A stretch of DNA of 64,000 nucleotides from NCBI RefSeq assembly GCF_024223415.1, contig NZ_CP100500.1; one strand, given 5' to 3'. The DNA comes from Escherichia coli. Lineage in GTDB: Bacteria > Pseudomonadota > Gammaproteobacteria > Enterobacterales > Enterobacteriaceae. Each line of letters opens with the position of its first letter. Position 1 is the stretch's first letter. Under the pieces are notes generated by a model. It was not told where the DNA came from. It made no database searches and saw nothing but the letters and a program-made list of their open reading frames with translations. A program made the translations under genes and the position numbers. Below, piece after piece: positions 31,258 to 42,496 of the stretch.

Positions 31258-31284
31258 CGTATAACCAAACGTATAACTAAAATC
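31258..31284. promoter_or_regulatory. Putative integrase arm-type repeats (left island end)
   Basis: cgtataaccaaacgtataactaaaatc; same motif recurs at 42233-42290 next to int. Confidence 0.4.
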
Positions 31285-31447
31285 ATTTGCTGAAAAAGTG
31301 TACAATTTAAAGGCGAGTTTTCCCAGAGGTTTATTAAACTACGAAAATTTCGTAGTTTGTGAATATATTCCGGCCTGCTGGTTAACAGTCCTCAGATGTG
31401 AGGGATGTAGCCAGCGCAATTTTGCGCTTTGCTTTAATCTCAGTCAG

Positions 31448-31729
31448 TTATCGCCGTAACCGCTCCGGCTTCTTCCAGTGGTACGTAATTTTTTCTTTCT
31501 CCCGATACAGTTCAACGCGGCGATTGTAGGCCAGCATTTCCAGAACGCGGATCCGTATGTCGCGCATATCCACGCCGTTAAGCTCAATACCGTCACGGCG
31601 CATCACCTCAGCAACCACACGCGCATAATTTTCGGCGGTCACGCTGTCCGGCTGCGTGGCCTGTTCGTCAGCCTGCTGGCTGATTCCGGCAACGCGACGG
31701 ATTAATCGCAGTAGTTCGGCTTCTGTCAT
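31448..31729 (-). CDS. Hypothetical protein, cos-adjacent
   Basis: 93-aa ORF, plausible composition; no family recognised. Confidence 0.45.
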   Translation of the reverse strand: MTEAELLRLIRRVAGISQQADEQATQPDSVTAENYARVVAEVMRRDGIELNGVDMRDIRIRVLEMLAYNRRVELYREKEKITYHWKKPERLRR

Positions 31730-31761
31730 TGTGCCCCCATCGTTCTGATAGTCTGGTGTCG

Positions 31762-31836
31762 TCGGGTCCTTCCTGGAATTATGGCCCGTTACGGGGCGTC
31801 GACCTCGCGGTTTTTCGCTATTTATGAGATTTTTTG
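31762..31836 (+). other. Lambda-like cos site, copy 1 (cosQ-cosN-cosB start, + orientation)
   Basis: cgggtccttcctgg...cccgttacg|GGGCGTCGACCT|cgcggtttttcgctatttatgag resembles lambda ACGGGTCCTTTCCGG...GGTTACG|GGGCGGCGACCT|CGCGGGTTTTCGCTATTTATGAAAA (lambda sequence from memory). Confidence 0.6.
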
Positions 31837-32285
31837 AGGGGGTGGTTGTTGTTTAATTGTTTGGTATATCTAATTGATAAGTAAGGTAAAAATAAAATAA
31901 ATACAACAACCTTACGGTGTATTTTGATGTCATTAATGTGAAAAAATTCAATGATATCAAATGGTTTTGTAAAAACATATGGTTGTTGTATCGCGTATTT
32001 GATGGCGTAACAGAAAGTGATTTTTAACTTTACCGCTCTGTAACTACGGATTATTCCATGCTGGCACGGAGAACGGCTACGGCATGACGCCACCCAGCCT
32101 ATACAGAACAGTAAAGCCGATAAATTGTTAATCACGCGCAGCAATGCGTGTGATTTTTGCACACTTCCGGTTAACGGGTACGATGTCCGGTTTGTTTGTA
32201 CATTTTTTGCACATGTCCGGTTCGCAGAAAGCATGTTTTTATATTTTTCATATAGTTAACTTGCAGAGAAACCGGACATGGATCC

Positions 32286-32360
32286 CGAAAAATTTTCATA
32301 AATAGTGAAAACGCGCGAGGTCGACGCCCCGTAACGGGTCCACATGCCGGAAAGGACCCG
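32286..32360 (-). other. Lambda-like cos site, copy 2 (inverted; reads cosQ-cosN-cosB on the minus strand)
   Basis: Minus strand reads cgggtcctttccggcatgtggacccgttacg|GGGCGTCGACCT|cgcgcgttttcactatttatgaaaattttt; closer to lambda than copy 1. Confidence 0.65.
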
Positions 32361-32384
32361 CAAAAAAAGCCGGATTTCTCCGGC
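32361..32384 (-). terminator. Terminator after the capsid-module operon
   Basis: Minus strand gccggagaaatccggc followed by a T-run. Confidence 0.5.
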
Positions 32385-32390
32385 CTTGTC

Positions 32391-32804
32391 TCAGATGGTT
32401 TTCAGTATGCGATCGATGTTGCCGTCATCGACCGGGTTTCTGCCATCGTATGCCATGCCAGCTGATACGGCTTTCGGGCTGTGCATGTCCATAAAGTTTT
32501 CAAAGGCTGAAGTAAGCTGTGGTGCAACCTTCGGGCGTTCCTGCTCTATGGTCATGCTAAGGATGCTTTTAGCCGTACCAACATCGATACAAGGCACGTT
32601 AGCCATTGCACGTAACAGCGGCTGGTAGTCGTCAGATTCATGAAGCGCCATAATCGCATCAGCGCGCTGCTTGTCCTGTTCTTCCAGTTTGTTTAGTCGG
32701 TGTATGGCCTCGTAGGTTGATAAACCTCTGTCAGCCATTGCCCGCGCTTCGGCTTTAAATTTACTCGCCAGCGGTAGCGTCATGATACTTTCATTCGTTG
32801 CCAT
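32391..32804 (-). CDS. Hypothetical protein, last gene of the capsid-module operon
   Basis: 137-aa ORF immediately downstream of the gpD-like gene; no family recognised. Confidence 0.55.
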   Translation of the reverse strand: MATNESIMTLPLASKFKAEARAMADRGLSTYEAIHRLNKLEEQDKQRADAIMALHESDDYQPLLRAMANVPCIDVGTAKSILSMTIEQERPKVAPQLTSAFENFMDMHSPKAVSAGMAYDGRNPVDDGNIDRILKTI

Positions 32805-32816
32805 CGTTCCCCCTGC

Positions 32817-33152
32817 TTATCGGGCCAGCGGCTGAACGGATACGCCGGAACCCGCAAAGGCGGCGCATTTTTTCGCATCGGTGTCGACGCTGTCAGGCCA
32901 GTTAACGGCGGCAATATTGAATATCCCCGTTTTGTAACACTGTGCTGATTTCTGCTTTGACGTGTCCACGGGGTGCGAAGTCAGATAAACAGCTTTGCCA
33001 GATTCCTGACCATCCCACGCCTTAAACTCGCCATTGTCTGCCAGCATCAGCGGGGTAAATTCCTGAATAACGCCAGCATCAGCGGCAAAATGTACCAGCG
33101 TCGTGGATACCTGCTGGCTGCCTGCAAATAACTCAATATATGGAGCGTCCAT
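32817..33152 (-). CDS. Head decoration protein, lambda gpD-like
   Basis: 111 aa; conserved blocks shared with lambda gpD as recalled (TPLMLxD...AWDG...YKxGxF...WP...KKxAFAG). Confidence 0.65.
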   Translation of the reverse strand: MDAPYIELFAGSQQVSTTLVHFAADAGVIQEFTPLMLADNGEFKAWDGQESGKAVYLTSHPVDTSKQKSAQCYKTGIFNIAAVNWPDSVDTDAKKCAAFAGSGVSVQPLAR

Positions 33153-33163
33153 AGAATCCCCCG

Positions 33164-34219
33164 TTAAGCAATTTTGACGGTAACAAATTTGCGAATATCT
33201 GCCGGTACCGGCTGCGGTGCGCTGTGCGTCTGCACGTACTCAATCGCCGGATCGCCGTCCTCAATCCAGTTTTTCGGGTAGTACATGTTTTGCGTTGCGC
33301 CCGTTCTTACCGCTTCCTGATCCATAATCGCACCATATGCCACAAGCCCTTTATTGTTGGTGTTACCCAGGACAAGCAAATCAGGCTCAAGGAAATATTT
33401 TTCGGTGCCGTCGCTGTCAGTGTATTTGCCGGAATAGACGATAAGGGCCAGATCACCAAGATAGCCTTTAAAGCTCACCACTTCGCCCAGGTTTTTACAG
33501 GCCAGCTCGGCGGCGGATTCTGAGCCACGGTAAAGATCGTACAGTTCACGGAATTTTTTAAAGCTGCGTAATGTGCGCCATGCCTCACCGCCCATAATCA
33601 TGACGTTGGCGGGGCAACCTGCCTGATCAGCATAAAGCTCGATGTCATAGATTGGGTCGTGCATGTCTTTATCCTGCTGGGACCATTTTTTACCACTGGC
33701 CTGCTGTATGATGCAGTTTTCCGGTATTTTCCAGTCGATTTCATAGCGTTCTATGCCTTCGCCCTCAATGATGTTTTTTCCGGTCGTTACCGCATTCACC
33801 GCCAGCCATTCCACGCGCGCCTTAATGGCGTTTATCTGGCGGCGCATGTTGCCAGTAATCAGGCGCATACGGCGGTAAGTTGGATCGTTAAGCTGTGCCG
33901 GATCTTCTCCAGCCATGCGCATGATGGTCTTTGTTGGATCGATTTCGTGCTTTGGCTTCATGTAGCCTGGTTTAATCGTGCTGGTTTCGTACCCTTTATC
34001 GCGCTGGACCTGACTACCCACCATAGGAGAACAGAACGCTGACATCGTAACCTCTTCAATGTCCAGGGTGTCCAGCATGATGTTTTGGGTGTTGAAGGTC
34101 GCCACGTTCGGGAAAAACAGCGTGGTAAACAGCGGACTAAATTTAAATTCCGAAATATCCCCGCGATTCAGGTACGCGAAAAGCTGGTTAGTTGTAAGTG
34201 CCGTTGCTTTGCCTGTCAT
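33164..34219 (-). CDS. Major capsid protein, lambda gpE-like
   Basis: 351 aa; blocks shared with lambda gpE as recalled (FKFxPLF, PGYMKPKHE, DPxYRRMR, YSGxY, YPKNW, GDPA). Confidence 0.8.
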   Translation of the reverse strand: MTGKATALTTNQLFAYLNRGDISEFKFSPLFTTLFFPNVATFNTQNIMLDTLDIEEVTMSAFCSPMVGSQVQRDKGYETSTIKPGYMKPKHEIDPTKTIMRMAGEDPAQLNDPTYRRMRLITGNMRRQINAIKARVEWLAVNAVTTGKNIIEGEGIERYEIDWKIPENCIIQQASGKKWSQQDKDMHDPIYDIELYADQAGCPANVMIMGGEAWRTLRSFKKFRELYDLYRGSESAAELACKNLGEVVSFKGYLGDLALIVYSGKYTDSDGTEKYFLEPDLLVLGNTNNKGLVAYGAIMDQEAVRTGATQNMYYPKNWIEDGDPAIEYVQTHSAPQPVPADIRKFVTVKIA

Positions 34220-34425
34220 TATTCACCTCCGTGAACCTGATTGATACCCAGCGCCGCACGTAAATAGGTACGCACCTGCCAGCCTGTTGACGGCTCAACC
34301 ATCGCCAGCGGATCAAGTCCTGCCGCAATGCCTGCTTTTACATTCTGCTGGTGGCGTTCCTTGAGCGCCTCCACGATGTCGGGGCTTATGTAGACCGTCA
34401 CCCCGCCTTTTTTCTCTTCTGCCAT
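34219..34425 (-). CDS. Hypothetical small protein, first gene of the capsid-module operon
   Basis: 68-aa ORF whose stop overlaps the gpE-like start. Confidence 0.45.
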   Translation of the reverse strand: MAEEKKGGVTVYISPDIVEALKERHQQNVKAGIAAGLDPLAMVEPSTGWQVRTYLRAALGINQVHGGE

Positions 34426-34592
34426 AGTCAGAAATTCCTCTTTGACTTAAAAAATCATAACTGGATGTTCATCCAGTCCTGATTATAATCATGATTGCAT
34501 TTTGCGCAACAATATTGAGTTACGTTGCAAATTATGAAATGATTATCCCGATCATGTGTGCCAGTGCACCATAAAAAACCTCGTATACAAAA

Positions 34593-34660
34593 GCCCGATA
34601 AGCCCCCTGTGACCTTATCGGGCTTTTTTTAGGCGTAAAAAAGCCGGATTGCTCCGGCTT
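34593..34660. terminator. Pair of terminator hairpins between the finO-like gene and the capsid operon
   Basis: gcccgataagccccctgtgaccttatcgggc + T-run, and agccggattgctccggct preceded by an A-run. Confidence 0.5.
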
Positions 34661-34683
34661 CGTCTCTTCATGTGGTCAGGGTT

Positions 34684-35268
34684 TTATGCTTTCCGTACGC
34701 CCGAGGAACTGGCATTTTTCAGAATAATATTATGCCCTGCTGGTGGCTTACCGTTATGCTTATTTTCTGCCTTCATGTTTCTGCGCTCCTGCTGTTTTTT
34801 CTTCATCTCATCCAGTCGCTTCCCCGCGTTCAACTGGTGCTCCTGTGTCACCTCCCCGCACGGATGGCCTTTCAGGTCGTAACGCACGCCACCAGCCATC
34901 AGGGAACGGTAATATCGCACTGAACTGACATAATACGCCAGCGTTGCGCGAAGCGCTCCCTGACCTAATGAAATACCTCTCGCAGTAATATCCTCCATCA
35001 GGTCATCAAATATGCCAACCTTAAGCGGTCTGGGCGATTCCTGGCTGAAAAGTTCAGGCCAGAGCGCGGCAAGGCGTTCAACGCGTCTGATATTTTTTTT
35101 CCGGCTCTTTTCTGATTTGCGTTTTGCTGCCGTCTTCTGTTGTGTTTTCTGCTCGCGGCTCTGCTTTTGCGCTGGTGTGGTTTTATCCGGCTGTTCAGCC
35201 TCCTGCGTCTTTTTCTGCGGTGTGCCGTATATGCCTTTTGGTTTTCGGTTAATGGTCAGCTTTGTCAT
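34684..35268 (-). CDS. FinO/ProQ-domain RNA-binding protein with a basic N-terminal extension
   Basis: Likely start MTKLTINRKPK (SD ggggagaa upstream); C-terminal region shares blocks with the ProQ N-terminal FinO domain as recalled (LWPELF, RPLKVGIFDDL, DLxGxPCGE). Confidence 0.65.
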   Translation of the reverse strand: MTKLTINRKPKGIYGTPQKKTQEAEQPDKTTPAQKQSREQKTQQKTAAKRKSEKSRKKNIRRVERLAALWPELFSQESPRPLKVGIFDDLMEDITARGISLGQGALRATLAYYVSSVRYYRSLMAGGVRYDLKGHPCGEVTQEHQLNAGKRLDEMKKKQQERRNMKAENKHNGKPPAGHNIILKNASSSGVRKA

Positions 35269-35347
35269 GTTCTCCCCCTTTGTGCTGTTCCACCAGCGGC
35301 ATCTGCTACCCCGTGTCGCTCCCGCTGGTGTCGTGTTTCCCCGCCTG

Positions 35348-35668
35348 TTAATAACCGTCATCATTTACGTTATCAGGGTAATCACGCCATATTTCATCAG
35401 TAAGCGACGGTAGCCCCATCTGTTGTATTGTCCTGTCTGCGGCCCTTCTGACTGCGTGAACATCATAACGGTTTTCAGGTATCGGGCGCTTTGCCTTCCT
35501 GATACATTCCCTTGCTCTCATTGCCGCAAGTTCTCTGTGCCTGTCTTCCTGAAGAGTAATCATCACATCCTGCCACCTTCTGGCAGCCCGTCGCCACAGT
35601 CCCCTGCTCTCGAGTTCTTCTGCTGTCGCGTCGCTTATTGTCCGGTTCTTCGGTGTGCTGTTGTTCAT
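35348..35668 (-). CDS. PerC-family transcriptional activator-like protein
   Basis: 106 aa with AEELESRGLWRRAARRWQDVM, resembling the conserved PerC/Pch motif as recalled. Confidence 0.5.
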   Translation of the reverse strand: MNNSTPKNRTISDATAEELESRGLWRRAARRWQDVMITLQEDRHRELAAMRARECIRKAKRPIPENRYDVHAVRRAADRTIQQMGLPSLTDEIWRDYPDNVNDDGY

Positions 35669-35685
35669 GTTGCTCCCCGCCTGAT

Positions 35686-36096
35686 TCAGAAGGGTATATC
35701 ATCTCCGTAGGGGTCATCGCCTCCCGCTGGTGGCTCATTCCCCTGTGTGCCTGTGGTTTTGCGTCTGTTCCCGCCATGACGTGCCGCACGCGCACTGATT
35801 ACGCTGTCTGCGATAACCTGCCAGCCCTGCCGCGTTTCCCCGTTCTGTCCGGTCCACTGGCTCACCTGCATGTTACCCGCCACGCTCAGGAGTTCACCTT
35901 TGCGGTGCTTTGCCAGTGCTTCGGCCTGTCTGCCAAACGCCAGCACAGATAACCACATCGTCGCCGTTCCGTCATCTGCCTGGCTGCACGGAAGGGGGAC
36001 CGCCATACTCGCCATCGCCATTTGTGTCCCCTTGCTGGTGGTCTTTAACTGCGGGTCAGCCACCAGCCGCCCGTAAGCCGCTATCTGTGCTGTCAT
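35686..36096 (-). CDS. ssb: Single-stranded DNA-binding protein (phage-type SSB)
   Basis: 136 aa; OB-fold pattern (GRLVADPQLK...WLSVLAFGRQAE...) and acidic C-terminal tail GDDIPF typical of SSB. Confidence 0.7.
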   Translation of the reverse strand: MTAQIAAYGRLVADPQLKTTSKGTQMAMASMAVPLPCSQADDGTATMWLSVLAFGRQAEALAKHRKGELLSVAGNMQVSQWTGQNGETRQGWQVIADSVISARAARHGGNRRKTTGTQGNEPPAGGDDPYGDDIPF

Positions 36097-36344
36097 GCTG
36101 TATGCTCTCCGGTTTTAACGTTGATGGTTGTCACCTGTTCCGCTCCGGCAATCTCCCGTTCTGTCAGCGTGGCAAAATTTGCCGCTACCGTTGTCATGAA
36201 TGCGCTTATCAGTTCGGGATGTGCTTTCGCGTATCCTTCTCCCGCGTGGCGGTCTATCGTTCTGATTGCCACCTTTAAGGCGTGCTCTGTCATGTCTAAC
36301 GCTTTATATTTTGGCGCTGTCTTATCTCTGGTTTTTCTGTTCAT
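36093..36344 (-). CDS. Hypothetical protein
   Basis: ORF 36093-36374; likely start MNRKTRDK, just downstream of the iterons. Confidence 0.45.
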   Translation of the reverse strand: MNRKTRDKTAPKYKALDMTEHALKVAIRTIDRHAGEGYAKAHPELISAFMTTVAANFATLTEREIAGAEQVTTINVKTGEHTA

Positions 36345-36560
36345 TCCCCACCACTCCCCACTTTTGCTCCCCACTTTTTAAATTCCCCACTTGCTCCCCA
36401 CCTCGTTTTTTGAGTGAATCTAATGCTTTGTTTTTCATTGCGTTTTTTACTCCCCACTTTTTTGGATGTATACAGGTGGGAAAGTGGGGAATTATGTTTC
36501 AATTTTGTTAAATTCCCCACTCTCCCCACTTTTACTACCCACTTTTTACAGTGGGTAAAC
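36344..36560. repeat. Iteron cluster, putative island replication origin
   Basis: At least nine direct and inverted copies of (a/c)TCCCCAC(TTTT), e.g. actccccactttt, gctccccactttt, attccccacttg, plus inverted gtgggaaagtgggga, next to the primase/helicase gene. Confidence 0.6.
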
Positions 36561-37961
36561 ATCATCCCCATCGACACAAATCACGCCGTCTTTTTCCAGC
36601 TTGGACAGCCAGCGCCGGAAGTGCTTCATCTCATACCCCAGCTTTTTCATATCGTCGCGGAGAAGGGCGATAGTGCATGGCTCTTTGTGTGCCGTCCGCG
36701 TTCTGATGCACTGCCATAGCGCGGTATGGTTTTCCGTCTTGTTGCCTGCCTCCTCGATGCGCTCCAGTTCAACGGGAGAGCGCGGCTTATCAACCACCAC
36801 CAGCGACGTGATTAACTCCCCGTCAGCGTCGGTAAAAAGCTCCACCACGCGTAAATCGTAGGCGGCCTCTTTCAGTTCCTCCGCGTCCTTCATTTTGGTG
36901 CAGGATATAACCAGGGCTTTACTGTCTGCACCTTCTCGGCGAATACGGTATTCAGCGTCCAGAGATGCACGAAATGCACTGGAACCACGCGCCCCCTTTG
37001 TTTCATCCTTGCCGGAATGGTGGACCACCAGCACCGTGGCCCCTGTGCGTCGTTTCAGGTCGTCACATCCACGGATAAACGCCCCCATATCCCGCGCGTC
37101 ATTTTCATCATTACCGCCAAAGCAACGCGCCAGCGTATCCAGAATAATCATGCGTACCGGTTTACCCGTTTCCCGTTCAACCTGGCGGGAAGCGATAACC
37201 ATTTCATCAACATCAAGCGGGGCTGCCGGAAAAATCGGGCGGTTTACCAGGTACAGATTTTTCACCCGTTCATCATTAACGATTTCCCATGCCTTGATAC
37301 GACGGGGGACACCAATGCCACCTTCACCGACAACATACATCACCGAACCATGCGCCACCCTGCGGCCTCCCCAGTGGCGCCCCGTGGCAACATGACACGC
37401 CCAGGAACACGCAAGGAATGATTTATAGGAACCGCTCGCACCGTATGTGCTGCACAATGAATTAGCCGGAATCACGCCCTTAACGACATAATCAAGCTGT
37501 GTGTCGTATCCTGCAGATCCAATGCTCATGGGTAGCGTGGTTTTTCGCTGGCTGTATTGCTCATCAGTAAGTATTTCCCCGCGCTCTGCCTGTTCGCGGA
37601 TCCGTTGCAGGTAGTCGCGCCATTCCTCCCGCTTCTGGCTGTGCATTCCCTCGGGGTAATAACTCGCATCCCGTATACCTGCCGCCGCCAGTTTTTGCCC
37701 GATGGCATTAATATTTGATGGCTTGATGTGGCCTGCCTTGTACAGCCGGACACAATAGCGACCATCGTCGATAATTTTCAGGTCTGCCAGTTCGTCAAGC
37801 TGACTGTCTCCCAGCCATACTGGCGGGACGTTATCGCCAGCAAGTCGCCCGTCCTGTTCCTGCCATTGTTTTGCGTGCGCCCAGGCATCACTACCTGCAA
37901 AAATAATGACTTCGGTCATTTTGTTGTGTGGCTGTTTTTTTAAGTTCGGTGCCAGTTTCAT
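36546..37961 (-). CDS. Replication protein: putative primase/helicase (RecA-like NTPase, AAA_25/RepA-like)
   Basis: 471 aa; P-loop-like GASGSYKSF and Walker B-like MIILDTLARCF; position typical of satellite pri-rep genes. Confidence 0.55.
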   Translation of the reverse strand: MKLAPNLKKQPHNKMTEVIIFAGSDAWAHAKQWQEQDGRLAGDNVPPVWLGDSQLDELADLKIIDDGRYCVRLYKAGHIKPSNINAIGQKLAAAGIRDASYYPEGMHSQKREEWRDYLQRIREQAERGEILTDEQYSQRKTTLPMSIGSAGYDTQLDYVVKGVIPANSLCSTYGASGSYKSFLACSWACHVATGRHWGGRRVAHGSVMYVVGEGGIGVPRRIKAWEIVNDERVKNLYLVNRPIFPAAPLDVDEMVIASRQVERETGKPVRMIILDTLARCFGGNDENDARDMGAFIRGCDDLKRRTGATVLVVHHSGKDETKGARGSSAFRASLDAEYRIRREGADSKALVISCTKMKDAEELKEAAYDLRVVELFTDADGELITSLVVVDKPRSPVELERIEEAGNKTENHTALWQCIRTRTAHKEPCTIALLRDDMKKLGYEMKHFRRWLSKLEKDGVICVDGDDVYPL

Positions 37962-38257
37962 TTTTTATCCCTGAATCCGTTAATCATGGTTTTCATCTTC
38001 TGAATATTGGCGCGTGCTTTCTCCCTGCTGGTTGGTTTACTGCGGGGCGCTGCCTGTACCAGAGAAAAATCACGCCGGAACTGATAAACAGGCATCACGC
38101 AGTCATATTCGTAGCCATCACGGCGGTAAGTGATGCGCCGTTCTGCCACGCCTTTAATCGTTACCGTACCGCCGTAGTTATCACGGAAAATATCGCCGGG
38201 ACGGATTTCAGGCCGAGCGGGGCCGCTGGCAGTAAAGCCAGAATTTTTCTTTTTCAT
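37958..38257 (-). CDS. Hypothetical protein
   Basis: 99-aa ORF overlapping the primase start (ATGA). Confidence 0.45.
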   Translation of the reverse strand: MKKKNSGFTASGPARPEIRPGDIFRDNYGGTVTIKGVAERRITYRRDGYEYDCVMPVYQFRRDFSLVQAAPRSKPTSREKARANIQKMKTMINGFRDKK

Positions 38258-38261
38258 GGTT

Positions 38262-38462
38262 TTATTTTCCTGTCAGTGATTCCGGCTTTATTCCGGCGCG
38301 AATACAGGCTTCAGAAAAAAAAGCCAGAGAACCAATAACCTCATTATTTCTAAGGCGGCATTGCGATTTCACTTTCCCTTTATCCAGGAATATCAAAACG
38401 CGCCCCGTATAATCAGATGGCACATTAAGCACTACAGGTAAGTGCGCTTCATGATTATTCAT
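38262..38462 (-). CDS. Hypothetical small protein
   Basis: ORF 38262-38531; likely start MNNHEAH (66 aa). Confidence 0.35.
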   Translation of the reverse strand: MNNHEAHLPVVLNVPSDYTGRVLIFLDKGKVKSQCRLRNNEVIGSLAFFSEACIRAGIKPESLTGK

Positions 38463-38742
38463 GGCTAACCACCTCCTGGAATTTTCTTCTGTAACGCGCC
38501 TCTGCCACATATTCAGCATAGTCCGACGCAATATTGAGAATATCGCTACCCGTTCCTGAATGTTCGGCGGTTTCCAGTAAAAAACATGCAGCTTTTACCA
38601 TGTCAGCAACACATAACAGCGCAATATCTGTATCTTCCGGTGTGCCATCAAATTCCTGTTTCAGGGCATTAAAACGATCATCACGCATAACCCCATATTC
38701 ACAATCAGCAATCAGGATGGCTTTGGCCTCATTCAGTGCCAT
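38455..38742 (-). CDS. Hypothetical protein (C-terminal, protein-like part of a 595-aa stop-free frame; true start uncertain, could extend to about 38898)
   Basis: Last ~95 codons of frame 38455-40242 are acidic and helix-like; upstream part looks non-protein-like. Confidence 0.4.
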   Translation of the reverse strand: MALNEAKAILIADCEYGVMRDDRFNALKQEFDGTPEDTDIALLCVADMVKAACFLLETAEHSGTGSDILNIASDYAEYVAEARYRRKFQEVVSHE

Positions 38743-38896
38743 ATCAGCGGTAAGCTGTGCGTAGGCCAGCAAATGCGGGATTATTGCCCCTGTATATTCC
38801 GGCTCTCTGATAATGTGGTCGGATGTGTTGATTAAATAGTTTGTGCGAAAAATGCACCTGTAACCATCAGTTAACAACGGATATACAGGGGGGACC

Positions 38897-39067
38897 ATGA
38901 ATGATAAGGGGGTGCCGTTTGATGTGCTCCTGCAAAAGCTGAATGCTGCACGCGCCGCAAGGGAACGTGAGCGCATGAGTAATAACCCTGTCCCTCCTGA
39001 ATTACCTCGCCCTGAACATTTTCCGCTTGAGGATTTCATCAGGGGACGAATCCGAACAAAACGATAA
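38897..39067 (+). CDS. Small ORF a (56 aa); paralogous to ORF c
   Basis: MNDKGVPFDVLLQKLNAARAARERERMSNNPVPPELPRPEHFPLEDFIRGRIRTKR; G-rich SD-like sequence upstream; shares the FPLE-FI / RERER motif with ORF c. Confidence 0.3.
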   Translation: MNDKGVPFDVLLQKLNAARAARERERMSNNPVPPELPRPEHFPLEDFIRGRIRTKR

Positions 39068-39310
39068 CCGCCGCCGTGATATGAGGCATCACGACGCAAT
39101 GCATTACAGGTGAGCACCATGAACAAATCCATATTATCCCCCACAGTTCTGGACGTAAACACAAAGCAGCGACAGATATTATTACGCGCCGTCATTAAAG
39201 CCAGACACGAGAAATTAAACCAAATCTTAAAATAAGATACGCCGCTACCGCTGTAAGTCTTCATCAGAAACAGAAAACGCCAGAGCAGATGAGCACGGAG
39301 GTAACTCTTT

Positions 39311-39505
39311 ATGAAAATAAACGAATCAGGGGAAATTACCGAAGCCAGCGTGGTACGCCAGCGGAGGCGGGAACGACGGGTACGGCCCCCCGCGCCATCC
39401 GATAATTTCCCGCTTGAGCGCTTCATCAGTGAACGGCCCCGCATACGCTGGAACGGCACAACCCCATACCCCGAGGAGAGACAGACAAAAAACAAACAGC
39501 GATGA
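39311..39505 (+). CDS. Small ORF c (64 aa); paralogous to ORF a
   Basis: SD ggagg 8 nt upstream; contains RRRERRVRPPAPSDNFPLERFISERP. Confidence 0.3.
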   Translation: MKINESGEITEASVVRQRRRERRVRPPAPSDNFPLERFISERPRIRWNGTTPYPEERQTKNKQR

Positions 39506-39681
39506 TGAAATCTGGAGGCCAATACCATCACGCAGCCATCAGGAGATTGCTGACGCGCTTCCTGTTCGCTGGTGGCCTCGATGGTAATCACGCGCGGTTG
39601 TGCAGTGCTCAGGGCGATAAAACGCCACACAAAGGCCGTTTGTGTGTGCGCAAGGCGTGGGGTATGCTGTGTTCCAGCCAT
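39460..39681 (-). CDS. Icd-like (host cell division inhibitor-like) protein; 3' end undefined because the frame has no stop until 38455
   Basis: Strong SD (aggag, 9-nt spacer) before ATG at 39681; MAGTQHTPRLAHTQTAFVWRFIALS...TSEQEARQQ... resembles Icd-like proteins of satellite elements as recalled. Confidence 0.35.
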
Positions 39682-39808
39682 AATCGTTACTCCTGTTAAC
39701 GGTTTGGTTAGACGCCCTGCATGTGTGCCACCACTGCGGGGCGTTGTTTTTGTGGTGTCATTGGTATACATTGTCACCTTAATGGCATTATCACTACAGA
39801 GGTTTATC

Positions 39809-39985
39809 ATGTCAACCAATGACAACAAAAAAGAAAGATTTTCCGTACAACTACGCCTAGACGCAGATTTGTTCGAGCGTTTAAGTATTGCCATGAAAGA
39901 AGATGGCGACGATAACCGATCTGGATGGATCAAAAGGCTTTTACGACGCGAATTAGATAAACGCGGCATTGAGTCAAAAAGCTGA
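39809..39985 (+). CDS. Ribbon-helix-helix (Arc/Mnt-like) DNA-binding protein
   Basis: 58 aa; ERFSVQLRLDADLFERLSIAMKEDGDDNRSGWIKRLLRRE parallels the Arc repressor pattern (beta-strand then two helices) as recalled. Confidence 0.5.
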   Translation: MSTNDNKKERFSVQLRLDADLFERLSIAMKEDGDDNRSGWIKRLLRRELDKRGIESKS

Positions 39986-40078
39986 CAGCCAACCAGCAAG
40001 CCAGCACACTGATCACATTGCCCACCAGCCGCAAATGTGGCATTGTTGGTGATGCTTTTGTTTTCCCTTGTTCCCACT

Positions 40079-40108
40079 GGCGACCCTTTTGCGGTCGCCT
40101 TTGTTTTG
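40079..40108 (+). terminator. Rho-independent terminator after the RHH gene
   Basis: ggcgacccttttgcggtcgcc + tttgtttt. Confidence 0.55.
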
Positions 40109-40202
40109 CCTGTTATCCGGCAATTGTGGCGCTTCGCCACACGGTTTATATAACCCCACTGCTCAGATTCATTTTTTGCGCAGTAGGTTAATTGTTCGCA
40201 AG

Positions 40203-40231
40203 GGCGGCTCCTTATCGGGGCCGCTTTTTTC
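40203..40231 (+). terminator. Second plus-strand terminator before alpA
   Basis: gcggctccttatcggggccgc + tttttt. Confidence 0.5.
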
Positions 40232-40256
40232 GTGTTTGTCATATCTGTGATACCCG

Positions 40257-40463
40257 TTAAGCAGCCGTTCCGCGTGCTTCCTGTTCGCGTTCTTTCTGCC
40301 AGGCCAACACATCATCCTCATACCATCCGCGACGGCGTAAACCAACGCGAAAACCCTGCGGAAATTCTCCGGCGTTGATCATGCTTTGCAGCGTGCTGTC
40401 TGCCTTGATGTGGATAATTTTTTTTACTTCCTGGCGAAAGATAATTTTTCTGATTGCTTCCAT
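40257..40463 (-). CDS. alpA: AlpA-family regulator / excisionase-like protein
   Basis: 68 aa; HTH region LQSMINAGEFPQGFRVGLRRRGWYEDDVLAW typical of AlpA-family proteins. Confidence 0.7.
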   Translation of the reverse strand: MEAIRKIIFRQEVKKIIHIKADSTLQSMINAGEFPQGFRVGLRRRGWYEDDVLAWQKEREQEARGTAA

Positions 40464-40593
40464 CGTGATTTACCTTGTGAATCCGGTGTATTCCGGTGAC
40501 AAATACGGTAAATCATCGGATATGGGTAAAAACAGTTCCCACCGTTTTTAAACGGTATACACCGTTTTTTATATTGATGATTTGAAATGGAAT

Positions 40594-40622
40594 TATAAAA
40601 AAAGCGGCATTTCTGCCGCTTC
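40594..40622 (-). terminator. Terminator between the int-proximal ORF and alpA
   Basis: Minus strand agcggcagaaatgccgct followed by a T-run. Confidence 0.45.
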
Positions 40623-40630
40623 CAGGATTG

Positions 40631-40882
40631 TTACCGCCATTTTTTGGGCCTGCCTCCGATCTTCATAGATGCCGGACGTACGACCTTATCAATACTTACC
40701 GCCAGATTTCTGGAAGCGCCACGGGATACCAGAAAATCTACTACCTGTTTTTTTGATGGGGCCGTCGTCCTGTCCTCCGGATCGTAGGTTGACCAAAATT
40801 CATGCTGAACCATCAGGGCCAGTTGCAGCCCGTCGCAATTGCATCTGATATTTTTTTGCATCTTAACGGTTTCATGTTTCAC
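40631..40882 (-). CDS. Hypothetical protein between int and alpA
   Basis: 83-aa ORF with basic C-terminus (GGRPKKWR). Confidence 0.4.
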   Translation of the reverse strand: MKHETVKMQKNIRCNCDGLQLALMVQHEFWSTYDPEDRTTAPSKKQVVDFLVSRGASRNLAVSIDKVVRPASMKIGGRPKKWR

Positions 40883-40959
40883 GGCCTTGTCGTTAAATTT
40901 GATGCAATTATACGACGGTTTTACATGGTTTTCGTAGTTTTTACTGGTTTTCTGTACAG

Positions 40960-42219
40960 CTACACGGCTCGGATACCCCTTTTACCACTGGCGAGGGTTA
41001 CGCCCGTCGCCGCAGCCTCGACAAATTCGCCCCACCAGCGCATCAGCACGATGCGTTTTTCTATGTAGTTGCTCCGGTTGTATGCCCGTCTAACTTCGTT
41101 GGTGTCGACGTGGGCAAGTGCCGCCTCTATTACGTCCGGCTCGAATCCTTCCTCGTTCGCTGCTGTGCTGAATATGGCGCGTAATCCATGAGACACCAGC
41201 ACGCCAGCGAATCCCATACGCCGCAATGCTGCGTTAGCTGTCTGGCTGTTCATCGGCTGCTGTGGGTCTTTCAGACTTGGGAAAACGTAATTGCGGTGGT
41301 GGCTGATTGGTTTCATGGCCTCCAGCACCGCCATAGCCTGACCGGAAAGCGGGATAACGTGATCCCTGCGCATCTTCATGCGTCCGGCAGGTATCGTCCA
41401 TTGCTTCGCGTCCAGGTTGATTTCATCCCACCGCGTTGATGACGCTTCGGCGGGACGGGTTACGGTCAGTAACTGCCATTCAATCAGTAATCTGGTCTGC
41501 CGTTCTGTTGCCGATACTGATAAAGCCTGCATAAGCTCGGGCAGCTGTTCGGGGCGGATTGTTGGCATATGTTTTTTTACAGGTGAGGGAAACGCCTTAC
41601 GCACATTCATAGCCGGATTGGCATCAATCAGCCCACTGTTGGCGGCGTAATCCATTACCTCATTAACGCGCTGTAAAACCCGCTTGAGTGTTTCCAGGTT
41701 GCCGCGCTCCTTGATGGGGGTAAGCACTTCAACGAACCTTCGGGCGGTGAGGGTATCTATTGGCGTGTTGCCGATGAACGGGAATACATATTTATCCAGC
41801 GAACGCCAGATGTCTTTAATCGTGTTGGGGGCCAGATTCTGGCTGATTTTCACCTGGTACCATGCCGCCGCCACATTTTCGAACGTGTTCCCTTGTCTTC
41901 GGGCCTCTGTCTCTCTTTTTTGCCTCTCGTGGTCCTGCGGGTCAGTTCCGGCACTGATTAACGTCCTGTACTCGCTACGGCGTTTTCTGGCATCAGCCAG
42001 GGAAACATCTTCAAGCGATCCAAAACTCAGCAATATTCTTTTTTTGTCCGATGGTCGGTAGTAGGAAAATCTCCAGAGTTTTGATCCAGACGGTTTGACC
42101 AGGAGAAAAAGCCCTCCGCCGTCCTGCAGGGTGTACTCCTTTTGCGCTGGTCTGGCTGCTTTGATCTGCACTGTGGTTAATGGGTGTGTTTTTCTCGCCA
42201 TATGTCTATGATTCCACAC
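40960..42219 (-). CDS. int: Tyrosine recombinase / integrase (P4-type)
   Basis: 419 aa adjacent to tRNA-Pro; N-terminal arm-binding region (LFLLVKPSGSKLWRFSYY) and C-terminal catalytic domain (HGLRAIFST...LAHV...RAYNRSNY). Confidence 0.9.
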   Translation of the reverse strand: MWNHRHMARKTHPLTTVQIKAARPAQKEYTLQDGGGLFLLVKPSGSKLWRFSYYRPSDKKRILLSFGSLEDVSLADARKRRSEYRTLISAGTDPQDHERQKRETEARRQGNTFENVAAAWYQVKISQNLAPNTIKDIWRSLDKYVFPFIGNTPIDTLTARRFVEVLTPIKERGNLETLKRVLQRVNEVMDYAANSGLIDANPAMNVRKAFPSPVKKHMPTIRPEQLPELMQALSVSATERQTRLLIEWQLLTVTRPAEASSTRWDEINLDAKQWTIPAGRMKMRRDHVIPLSGQAMAVLEAMKPISHHRNYVFPSLKDPQQPMNSQTANAALRRMGFAGVLVSHGLRAIFSTAANEEGFEPDVIEAALAHVDTNEVRRAYNRSNYIEKRIVLMRWWGEFVEAAATGVTLASGKRGIRAV

Positions 42220-42232
42220 GAAAAAACAGGGT

Positions 42233-42290
42233 TTTAGTTATACGGCTTTAGTTATACGTCAGCCCGTATAACTAAACGTATAACTAAAAA
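42233..42290. promoter_or_regulatory. Cluster of putative integrase arm-type sites
   Basis: ttagttatacg x2 (inverted) and cgtataactaaacgtataactaaaa between int and the tRNA. Confidence 0.4.
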
Positions 42291-42419: not shown

Positions 42420-42496
42420 TGGTCGGCACGAGAGGATTTGAACCTCCGACCCCCGACACCCCATGACGGTGCGCTACCAGGCTGCGCTACGTGCCG
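42420..42496 (-). tRNA. proL: tRNA-Pro (proL-type)
   Basis: Reverse complement reads CGGCACGTAGCGCAGCCTGGTAGCGCACCGTCATGGGGTGTCGGGGGTCGGAGGTTCAAATCCTCTCGTGCCGACCA (77 nt, cloverleaf-compatible). Confidence 0.9.

Follow-up and report, generated by a model that had tools for sequence, protein, structure and literature searches.

PerC-family regulators and their mobile carriers

EPEC PerC (BfpW), encoded in the perABC operon of the EAF plasmid pMAR2, and EHEC PchA, PchB and PchC, encoded by lambdoid prophages next to lysis or effector genes, activate LEE1. For PchA, activation consists in the removal of silencing by H-NS, StpA and Hha, in a study that looked for contact with DNA and H-NS in cell extracts rather than with purified Pch, and in which H-NS did not co-precipitate (PMC4764244). 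LEE1 activation is, by contrast, not a feature of PchE (ECs_1588), the group 3 member encoded on Sp7 of strain Sakai (O-island 51, CP-933C, in EDL933), which is reported to have, like PchD, little effect on LEE (PMC6265319). Its documented effects lie elsewhere: ler-independent repression of csgD and curli, and higher flagellar expression. Within the family they are known for PchE alone, and they were obtained largely by over-expression from plasmids (PMC6265319, PMC7369912). Its gene stands in the order RgdR (ECs_1581), primase, ECs_1586, ssb (ECs_1587), pchE (ECs_1588), head genes (PMC3378721), and is read as part of a polycistronic ECs1586-ssb-pchE RNA that starts 10 nt upstream of ECs1586, as mapped by 5' RACE and RNA-seq (PMC7369912); pchE is expressed without induction, and its expression is reduced by an SOS-inducing drug (PMC7369912, PMC6265319).

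A further member, EcCIMP1_025, is encoded by EcCIMP1, a helper-dependent PICI of E. coli MP1, and represses LEE1-lux in Citrobacter rodentium, for which its authors suggested an ANR-like repressor (PMC11773190). They identified no phage-like structural genes on EcCIMP1, and found the presence of PerC to vary among EcCIMP1-like elements (PMC11773190); RefSeq names DNA-ejection and lytic-transglycosylase genes in EcCIMP1, but no capsid gene. PerC alleles occur on some Gram-negative PICIs (PMC6092414, PMC11773190), and a PerC-family gene on an E. coli satellite is already standard annotation as well as a published PICI feature. What, then, does a new member add, when its homologues activate, repress or ignore one and the same promoter? 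One modest point concerns where its gene sits and how it is exchanged there.

A divergent member of the family

The window analysed here comprises 64,000 nucleotides of Escherichia coli DNA (NCBI RefSeq assembly GCF_024223415.1, contig NZ_CP100500.1). From its letters alone, the original prediction had picked out one short open reading frame as a PerC-like activator carried by a satellite, which could act either on late genes of the island or on host genes. The frame starts with ATG on the minus strand 17 nt after the ssb stop codon and encodes 106 residues (ORF listing of the window), including LESRGLWRRAARRWQDVM, in which GLWRRAARRW occupies residues 23-32; we refer to the product as PerC106. 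The identical protein in RefSeq, WP_001066127.1, is named 'PerC family transcriptional regulator' and comes from strain GF4 (chicken meat), which carries a 100% identical 11-kb island. No second PerC copy was found within the window.

The family assignment held throughout. PF06069 (PerC) matches residues 11-100 over profile positions 2-90 of 90 with 93.5 bits (E 9.5e-27), far above the curated gathering cut-off of 22.6 bits, and is the only significant Pfam-A match of the protein; PchE, PerC and Pch themselves score between 143 and 153 bits (PchE 152.8). The best PHROG, phrog_994 (E 9.4e-28), covers the same span, and three further PHROG 'transcriptional activator' families match the N-terminal half only. 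An exhaustive search of representatives returned 123 clusters, with a single low-complexity false positive among them (P0076, 4669 aa), and a word-indexed homologue search gave eight close relatives. When the protein was aligned with 57 representatives from the exhaustive search and five relatives from fetched loci (63 sequences), four positions proved invariant (R26, R27, A28 and W32) and nine were conserved in at least 90% (D13, A16, L19, E20, G23, R31, C55, A76 and G85); PerC106 has all of them, and with them the N-terminal block D..A..LE..G(L/F)(W/Y)RRA..RW and the single conserved cysteine of the family. Its size and its all-helical prediction agree with a family of small helical proteins of about 60-130 aa, the representative relatives being mostly 60-140 aa long; in the AlphaFold model (pLDDT 82), helices span residues 14-22, 25-38, 42-59 and 70-83. 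Foldseek with this model gave no match with E below 0.8, and a sequence search of solved structures returned no PerC relative, the best E of 0.046 being a chance match. That both the reading frame and the family match are real, far beyond chance, is confirmed.

The ANR/Aar relationship proposed for EcCIMP1_025 was considered separately. With five PerC proteins as the check set (EcCIMP1_025, PerC106, PchE, EPEC PerC and group-1 Pch), only PerC reached E 0.05 in Pfam, and the relationship was rejected; the two other matches, Bud13 and MCM4_WHD, were at chance level (E about 0.07).

Among the characterised relatives, PerC106 shares family and size class, as well as the invariant LExxG(L/F)(W/Y)RRAAxRW and a location on mobile DNA, with EPEC PerC and PchA/B/C, from which it differs in genetic setting and to which its identity is low (35% to EPEC PerC, 34% to group-1 Pch). 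It is 37% identical to EcCIMP1_025, which also lies on the strand of its island's operons but towards the distal end of the island, well away from the replicase, and not after ssb. Its nearest characterised relative is PchE, of the same Pfam family, with 47% identity over all 90 PchE residues, including a C-terminal DEIWR(D/N)YPD; PerC106 is longer at both ends, by 10 residues at the N terminus and by an acidic tail of six (VNDDGY), and has W25 where PchE has Y. The two genes occupy like slots, directly after a small gene and ssb, downstream of an RgdR-like gene and a replicase, and upstream of head genes. Two differences set the surroundings apart: after PerC106 comes a ProQ/FinO gene with no counterpart in Sp7, and the window island pairs a RepA-type helicase with lambda-type capsid, decoration and scaffold proteins, where Sp7 has a primase and a full HK97-type packaging module. 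Is PerC106 then simply PchE? By position, directly after the satellite ssb in a small-gene-ssb-pch unit, it behaves as a group 3 Pch, but close identity to PchE is wanting: E. coli PchE alleles are mostly at least 90% identical at the DNA level, whereas PerC106 reaches 47% at the amino-acid level and blastn aligns no part of the segment 34660-35685 with Sakai Sp7 over as much as 100 nt. It is therefore filed as PchE-like, not as PchE, and is the positional counterpart of PchE in a separate allele class. PerC106 is, in short, a rare and divergent allele of a known kind of gene in a known position.

The carrying island

The satellite part of the original prediction is equally well borne out. The island (Table 1) lies between yejO and yejM, is bounded by 25-bp direct repeats that differ at one position (31258-31282 and 42265-42289), adjoins tRNA-Pro(ggg) at 42420-42496 and has all its genes on the minus strand. 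It combines integrase, AlpA, a RepA-type helicase, an iteron origin, ssb and capsid genes over 11 kb, within the range of about 10-15 kb usual for PICIs, at a specific site, and Pfam and RefSeq annotation show no portal, protease, adaptor, terminase, tail or lysis genes in it. The backbone of int, alpA, RgdR-like gene, replicase, iteron origin and ssb is common to Gram-negative PICIs and cf-PICIs such as EcCICFT073 and EcCIEDL933. The island nevertheless differs from cf-PICIs, whose set of capsid, protease, portal, adaptor/connector, terS and terL/HNH is incomplete here, where the head genes encode just a gpE-like capsid, a gpD-like decoration and a Nu3-like protein; terS, too, is absent, unlike in its sisters. 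Judged by gene content, its architecture is that of a PICI/P4-like satellite with part of a head module. Rfam, run over the island, found tRNA only, and neither a P4 CI-type RNA nor any other known RNA. A role in defence was rejected as well, as PADLOC, run on ten island proteins with PerC and ProQ among them, gave no match.

Table 1. Coordinates of the PerC106 gene, its transcription unit and the carrying island within the window
Feature	Coordinates	Strand	Basis or remark
perC-family gene, divergent PchE-like allele	35348..35668	-	ORF list; Pfam PF06069; RefSeq WP_001066127.1
perC ribosome-binding site GGGGAG	35673..35678	-	Read from sequence; 4 nt 5' of ATG
Small conserved gene, 83 aa (RefSeq start), first cistron	36093..36344	-	phrog_1231; equivalent of Sakai ECs_1586
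Satellite ssb, directly upstream of perC, same unit	35686..36096	-	Pfam SSB E 6.7e-16; 82% identical to Sakai ECs_1587
perC-proQ spacer, 79 nt	35269..35347	-	Repeat search; sequence
ProQ/FinO-domain gene, 194 aa (RefSeq start), second cassette gene	34684..35268	-	Pfam PF04352 E 2.1e-26; WP_029400542.1
perC-proQ cassette, only segment without homologue in five sister islands	34660..35685	-	blastn map; annotations
Two intrinsic-terminator hairpins, end of early unit	34589..34661	-	Sequence; alignment with Nissle
Capsid-operon control region, outside the PerC unit	34426..34588	-	Sequence; about 95% conserved in Nissle
Iteron-rich, AT-rich replication origin (CCCCACT repeats; families D1, D2, D8)	36335..36548	.	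GC 0.40
AAA_25/RepA-type helicase	36546-37961	-	Pfam
DUF4222 protein, RgdR-like	37958-38257	-	75% identical to Sakai RgdR (ECs_1581)
Poorly defined region	38262-40242	-	
alpA	40257-40463	-	Weak AlpA match; RefSeq name AlpA
Integrase	40960-42219	-	Three integrase domains
Carrying satellite island, about 11 kb	31258..42289	-	25-bp direct repeats; beside tRNA-Pro(ggg)

Within the island, perC stands third in a unit of four cistrons, hyp-ssb-perC-proQ, that runs from the iteron origin to the twin terminators. The origin region reaches the start of the small gene, and by analogy with Sakai the promoter of the unit presumably lies there. Because iteron sequences differ with replicase type among the sister islands, and the origins cannot be aligned with Sakai, the mapped start of pchE is not transferable base for base. 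The last cistron encodes a ProQ/FinO-domain protein that reaches the NCBIfam cut-off of neither ProQ nor FinO. The spacer in front of it contains a 9-bp inverted repeat (35291-35299/35322-35330) and a degenerate copy of the 3' end of ssb (repeat D5, 35319-35341 versus 35721-35743, 78%), a scar left by the recombination event from which the cassette arose.

An exchangeable slot behind the satellite ssb

A blastn mosaic map against five sister islands (MS 21-1, STEC2018-607, Nissle 1917, JNE181771 and Sakai Sp7) shows the element to be a mosaic. The int-alpA segment is 99% identical in the three closest tRNA-Pro sister islands and 93% in a fourth; all five, Sp7 included, match the small gene and ssb at 83-89% identity; and the four lambda-type sister islands match 32296-34659, which spans the capsid operon, its control region and the terminators, at 92-94%. 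The perC-proQ segment in between has no blastn counterpart in any of the five. At the same place after ssb, the islands of MS 21-1 and STEC2018-607, which share the tRNA-Pro site, carry a 99% PchE, and Nissle 1917 and JNE181771 carry nothing, the first terminator hairpin of Nissle following directly 3' of ssb. The two genes perC and proQ thus form a discrete cassette that has been inserted behind ssb, ahead of the terminator of ssb.

Counts over 5426 complete E. coli genomes give the slot some breadth. The satellite ssb was found in 1780 of them, at roughly 2300 loci, and a pchE-like gene in 965, about one in six; about half of the genomes with the satellite ssb also have a pchE-like gene. At a coverage of at least 80%, the ssb-pchE-promoter junction is present in 411 genomes, and a PerC-less junction that leads straight from ssb to the capsid promoter in at least 167. 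The PerC106 allele itself (at least 90% nucleotide identity) is confined to 51 genomes. In E. coli satellites, PerC-family genes hold a fixed but exchangeable place behind ssb at the close of its unit, where alleles with no more than 47% identity can stand in for one another or be missing.

Does PerC106 switch on the capsid operon?

Downstream of the cassette lies the capsid operon of four genes, the first for a 68-aa protein and the next three, in order, for a lambda gpE-like major capsid protein, a gpD-like decoration protein and a Nu3-like protein of 137 aa; the sole functional match of the last is to the C-terminal (scaffold) part of a head-protease family. The predicted promoter has a -35 TTGCGC at 34509-34504, a 16-nt spacing and a -10 TATAAT at 34487-34482, and no stretch of the island core is richer in AT than the one that holds it (GC 0.375). 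Directly after it follow an 8-bp hairpin (34478-34459) and a U-run, an arrangement which suggests that the operon is controlled by antitermination through a helper function. The control region gave no blastn match to phage late promoters among 50,697 phage records, so the antitermination idea is read from the anatomy of the region.

The original prediction had also entertained a late-gene role, in which PerC106 would activate the capsid operon from the promoter region 34426-34590. There is something to recommend it: perC stands immediately upstream of the operon and its product would be made before the capsid proteins, and the weak -35, next to a perfect -10 in an AT-rich setting, is the kind of site that is open to anti-silencer action. 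The comparative evidence speaks the other way. Nissle and JNE181771, whose islands have no PerC gene, retain the stretch 34426-34630 and the capsid operon at 92-95% identity, and these PerC-less sister islands with a retained capsid operon, together with the many PerC-less junctions counted above, argue against a dedicated activator. One and the same PchE allele, moreover, accompanies two unrelated capsid modules, one lambda-type and one HK97-type (Sakai Sp7), and PerC occurs in EcCIMP1-type elements for which no capsid gene is named. Two terminators separate perC-proQ from the operon, the first of which recurs after the capsid operon (repeat D4), and the hairpin and U-run point to antitermination instead. 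We therefore consider the late-gene role improbable, although a PerC protein may act on the operon in trans from a co-resident element.

What might PerC106 do?

If not the capsid operon, what are its targets? Our favoured reading, which we would place about midway between doubt and belief, is that PerC106 is a functional, divergent PerC/Pch member that modulates H-NS-bound host promoters in trans, with outputs of the PchE type, and travels on the satellite as conversion cargo. On this account, the unit would be transcribed from the origin promoter, as for pchE in Sakai, and an origin promoter implies that the level of the protein would be low while the island is integrated and higher during its replication. 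The product would be a roughly 12-kDa, four-helix, TPR-like hairpin that lacks a helix-turn-helix and exposes an invariant basic face formed by R26, R27, R31 and W32; an invariant N-terminal hairpin of basic character defines the family. Like PchA, it might join AT-rich promoters bound by H-NS, StpA and Hha and remodel the silencing complex, and in this way retune host genes for surface and behaviour, csgD/curli and flhDC/flagella being the best guess. It would then be moron-like, a conversion gene that the satellite carries outside its packaging programme. Action on host genes is, by analogy with homologues, better supported than activation of the capsid operon.

The divergence within the family is a consideration of its own that weighs against this host-gene reading: PchE, the only characterised close relative, is 47% identical, and members that are similarly divergent from one another act oppositely, or not at all, on a single promoter. 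The label 'PerC-like activator' is affected in the same way. Its family half stands, but 'activator' is not established, because homologues activate, repress or ignore LEE1. A narrower possibility is that PerC106 is a classical virulence activator of LEE1/ler, or of an equivalent master regulator, like EPEC PerC and PchA-C. Membership of the same Pfam family with all invariant residues is in keeping with it, and some PICI-borne PerC homologues have been reported to activate LEE (PMC6092414). The identity to PerC and group-1 Pch is, however, just 34-35%; PchE is reported to have little effect on LEE, and EcCIMP1_025 represses LEE1 (PMC11773190); and the nine of the 51 genomes that carry copies at least 99% identical come mainly from chicken and chicken meat. 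Such a role is, in our estimation, very improbable. Could the gene, at the other extreme, be an inert passenger, a by-product of recombination with no current function? The ssb scar between perC and proQ and the loss of terS from the island would fit, as would the fate of the other 42 of the 51 genomes, in which the best copy is a 92% allele; in both records examined this allele belongs to a remnant, ssb-perC-proQ', that is flanked by IS elements and has a truncated proQ. But the reading frame is intact, its ribosome-binding site is good and all invariant residues are kept. The comparison with the 92% allele gives a dN/dS of 0.38, and none of the 14 substitutions touches residues 11-39, so that the core is unchanged even in the remnant copies, a pattern that shows purifying selection on the gene and makes the passenger reading, to our minds, highly improbable.

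A role in the life cycle of the satellite deserves more room, since a gene found so often in satellite replication operons could equally serve the element's own cycle. PerC106 might counter H-NS at the AT-rich promoters or the origin of the satellite itself, or modulate the expression of a helper phage, with any virulence effect being secondary. In a scan of one genome per species, all 46 PerC loci belonged to Enterobacterales, and in at least 17 of them the gene directly upstream is on the same strand and encodes a satellite-type primase, ssb or ProQ, in most cases with int and alpA beyond it. The ssb gene itself adjoins PerC at 10 of the loci, the median gap being 15 bp, and the order ssb-ProQ-PerC recurs in Escherichia albertii (L014), Leclercia (L022) and Pantoea (L032). 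The frequent company of a pchE-like gene with the satellite ssb in E. coli and the place of perC within a replication-associated unit beside the origin fit the same role. Several observations fit it poorly. Many sister islands that look intact have nothing in the slot, PerC is variable among EcCIMP1-like elements (PMC11773190), and pchE expression drops, rather than rises, upon SOS induction (PMC6265319, PMC7369912). The remaining loci of the scan are heterogeneous in setting, and the family is also present on 241 plasmid records, in one of which a Pch-type copy adjoins prophage lysis genes, as well as in very few deposited phages. A life-cycle role is thus possible, though we hold it to be unlikely. 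A wider version would have the whole family consist primarily of Enterobacterales satellite components, belonging to an origin-proximal small-gene-ssb-perC unit that is sometimes joined by ProQ/FinO into a two-level cassette and that counters H-NS silencing of satellite or helper at induction; PerC and PchA-C would then be later exaptations. This scenario we regard as quite unlikely and offer as speculation.

Implications

Two points follow. The presence of a PerC106 gene should be read neither as evidence of virulence nor as a capsid-operon switch. And if the family at large acts on H-NS-silenced DNA, as PchA does, satellites would be frequent vehicles for rewiring the surface and motility genes of their hosts, a form of rewiring that would not surprise specialists.

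The perC-proQ cassette and its relatives

The partner of perC in its cassette is a ProQ/FinO-domain gene whose product scores under the NCBIfam cut-offs of ProQ and FinO alike. Adjacency of ProQ and PerC genes is seen again in satellites of Escherichia albertii, Leclercia and Pantoea (comparison loci L014, L022 and L032), there in the order ssb-ProQ-PerC. Judged from its sequence, the perC-proQ spacer, which carries a degenerate copy of the ssb 3' end, looks like a recombination scar left by cassette assembly. A 92% allele of perC, the top match in 42 genomes, sits in both records examined (L003 and L004, 8687-9573) within an ssb'-perC-proQ' fragment between remnants of IS5 and IS66, and the island hosting this fragment is decayed and adjoins ynjA. 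In most strains carrying the intact island, a second match shows up at another place in the chromosome. A separate observation concerns NZ_CP148430.1 (12,152 bp), deposited as a non-mobilizable plasmid: its gene content, including a DUF927 primase, a PerC-family gene and an integrase, is that of an EcCIMP1-like PICI, and the record may represent a satellite that has excised and circularised.

Coordinates of features on the island
Feature	Position	Strand	Remark
595-aa ORF	38455-40242	-	'Icd-like' per RefSeq in the identical island of strain GF4
Best sigma-70-like site of the island	39815 to 39787	-	TTGACA-17-GATAAT; within 595-aa ORF
ProQ/FinO-domain gene	34684-35268	-	Pfam E 2.1e-26; downstream of perC, same cassette
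Degenerate ssb 3'-end copy	35319-35341 vs 35721-35743		78%; in perC-proQ spacer (35269-35347)
9-bp inverted repeat	35291-35299 / 35322-35330		in perC-proQ spacer
Capsid-operon control region	34426-34588	-
Capsid-operon promoter	-35 34509-34504; -10 34487-34482	-	TTGCGC; TATAAT
Hairpin, then U-run	34478-34459; 34458-34449	-	directly after capsid promoter
73-nt inverted repeats	31763-31835 and 32288-32360		84% complementary

The 'Icd-like' frame and the RgdR homologue

Is the 595-aa frame a gene at all? Its product, which looks low-complexity, has no Pfam match, small plus-strand ORFs overlap it, and in the equivalent region of the sister islands a YlcI/YnfO-family protein is annotated on the plus strand. 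The region is mostly without homology to the sister islands. The frame is probably an annotation artefact laid over a P4-like immunity region, even though an Rfam search of the region found no known RNA. The DUF4222 protein (37958-38257, minus strand) is 75% identical to RgdR (ECs_1581), known from the literature to regulate type III secretion and motility. An RGD motif at residues 20-22 is reported to be functionally important; the protein in the window, by contrast, reads PGD there.

The slot behind the capsid operon

Downstream of the capsid operon, the 73-nt repeats bracket an AT-rich segment of 452 nt, and the whole stretch is inverted, at 95% identity, in the STEC2018-607 island (L011 1929-2526). 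In other sister islands (L010 2740-3282, L002 3551-4093) terS occupies the equivalent slot, and the strand it lies on differs between JNE181771 and Nissle 1917. From such comparisons, the slot looks prone to inversion. A small-terminase gene is absent from 31730-32390 in this copy, whereas Nissle, MS 21-1 and JNE181771 have one, and the packaging ability of this copy is therefore uncertain.

Control of the early unit and the capsid operon

The iterons at the origin (CCCCACT units, 36335-36548), whose sequence varies with replicase type among the sister islands, extend to the very start codon of the first, small gene in the ssb-perC unit, and replicase binding there could thus influence transcription of this gene. 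One terminator hairpin ends both the early unit (34637-34666) and the capsid operon (32363-32392), the two copies being 90% identical over 30 nt. The Nissle island has a capsid control region that is about 95% conserved; blastn of the region against phage records gave no match. Here the hairpin and U-run precede the ribosome-binding site of a 68-aa gene, and this layout of a promoter followed by a terminator suggests that the capsid operon may be under helper-dependent antitermination.
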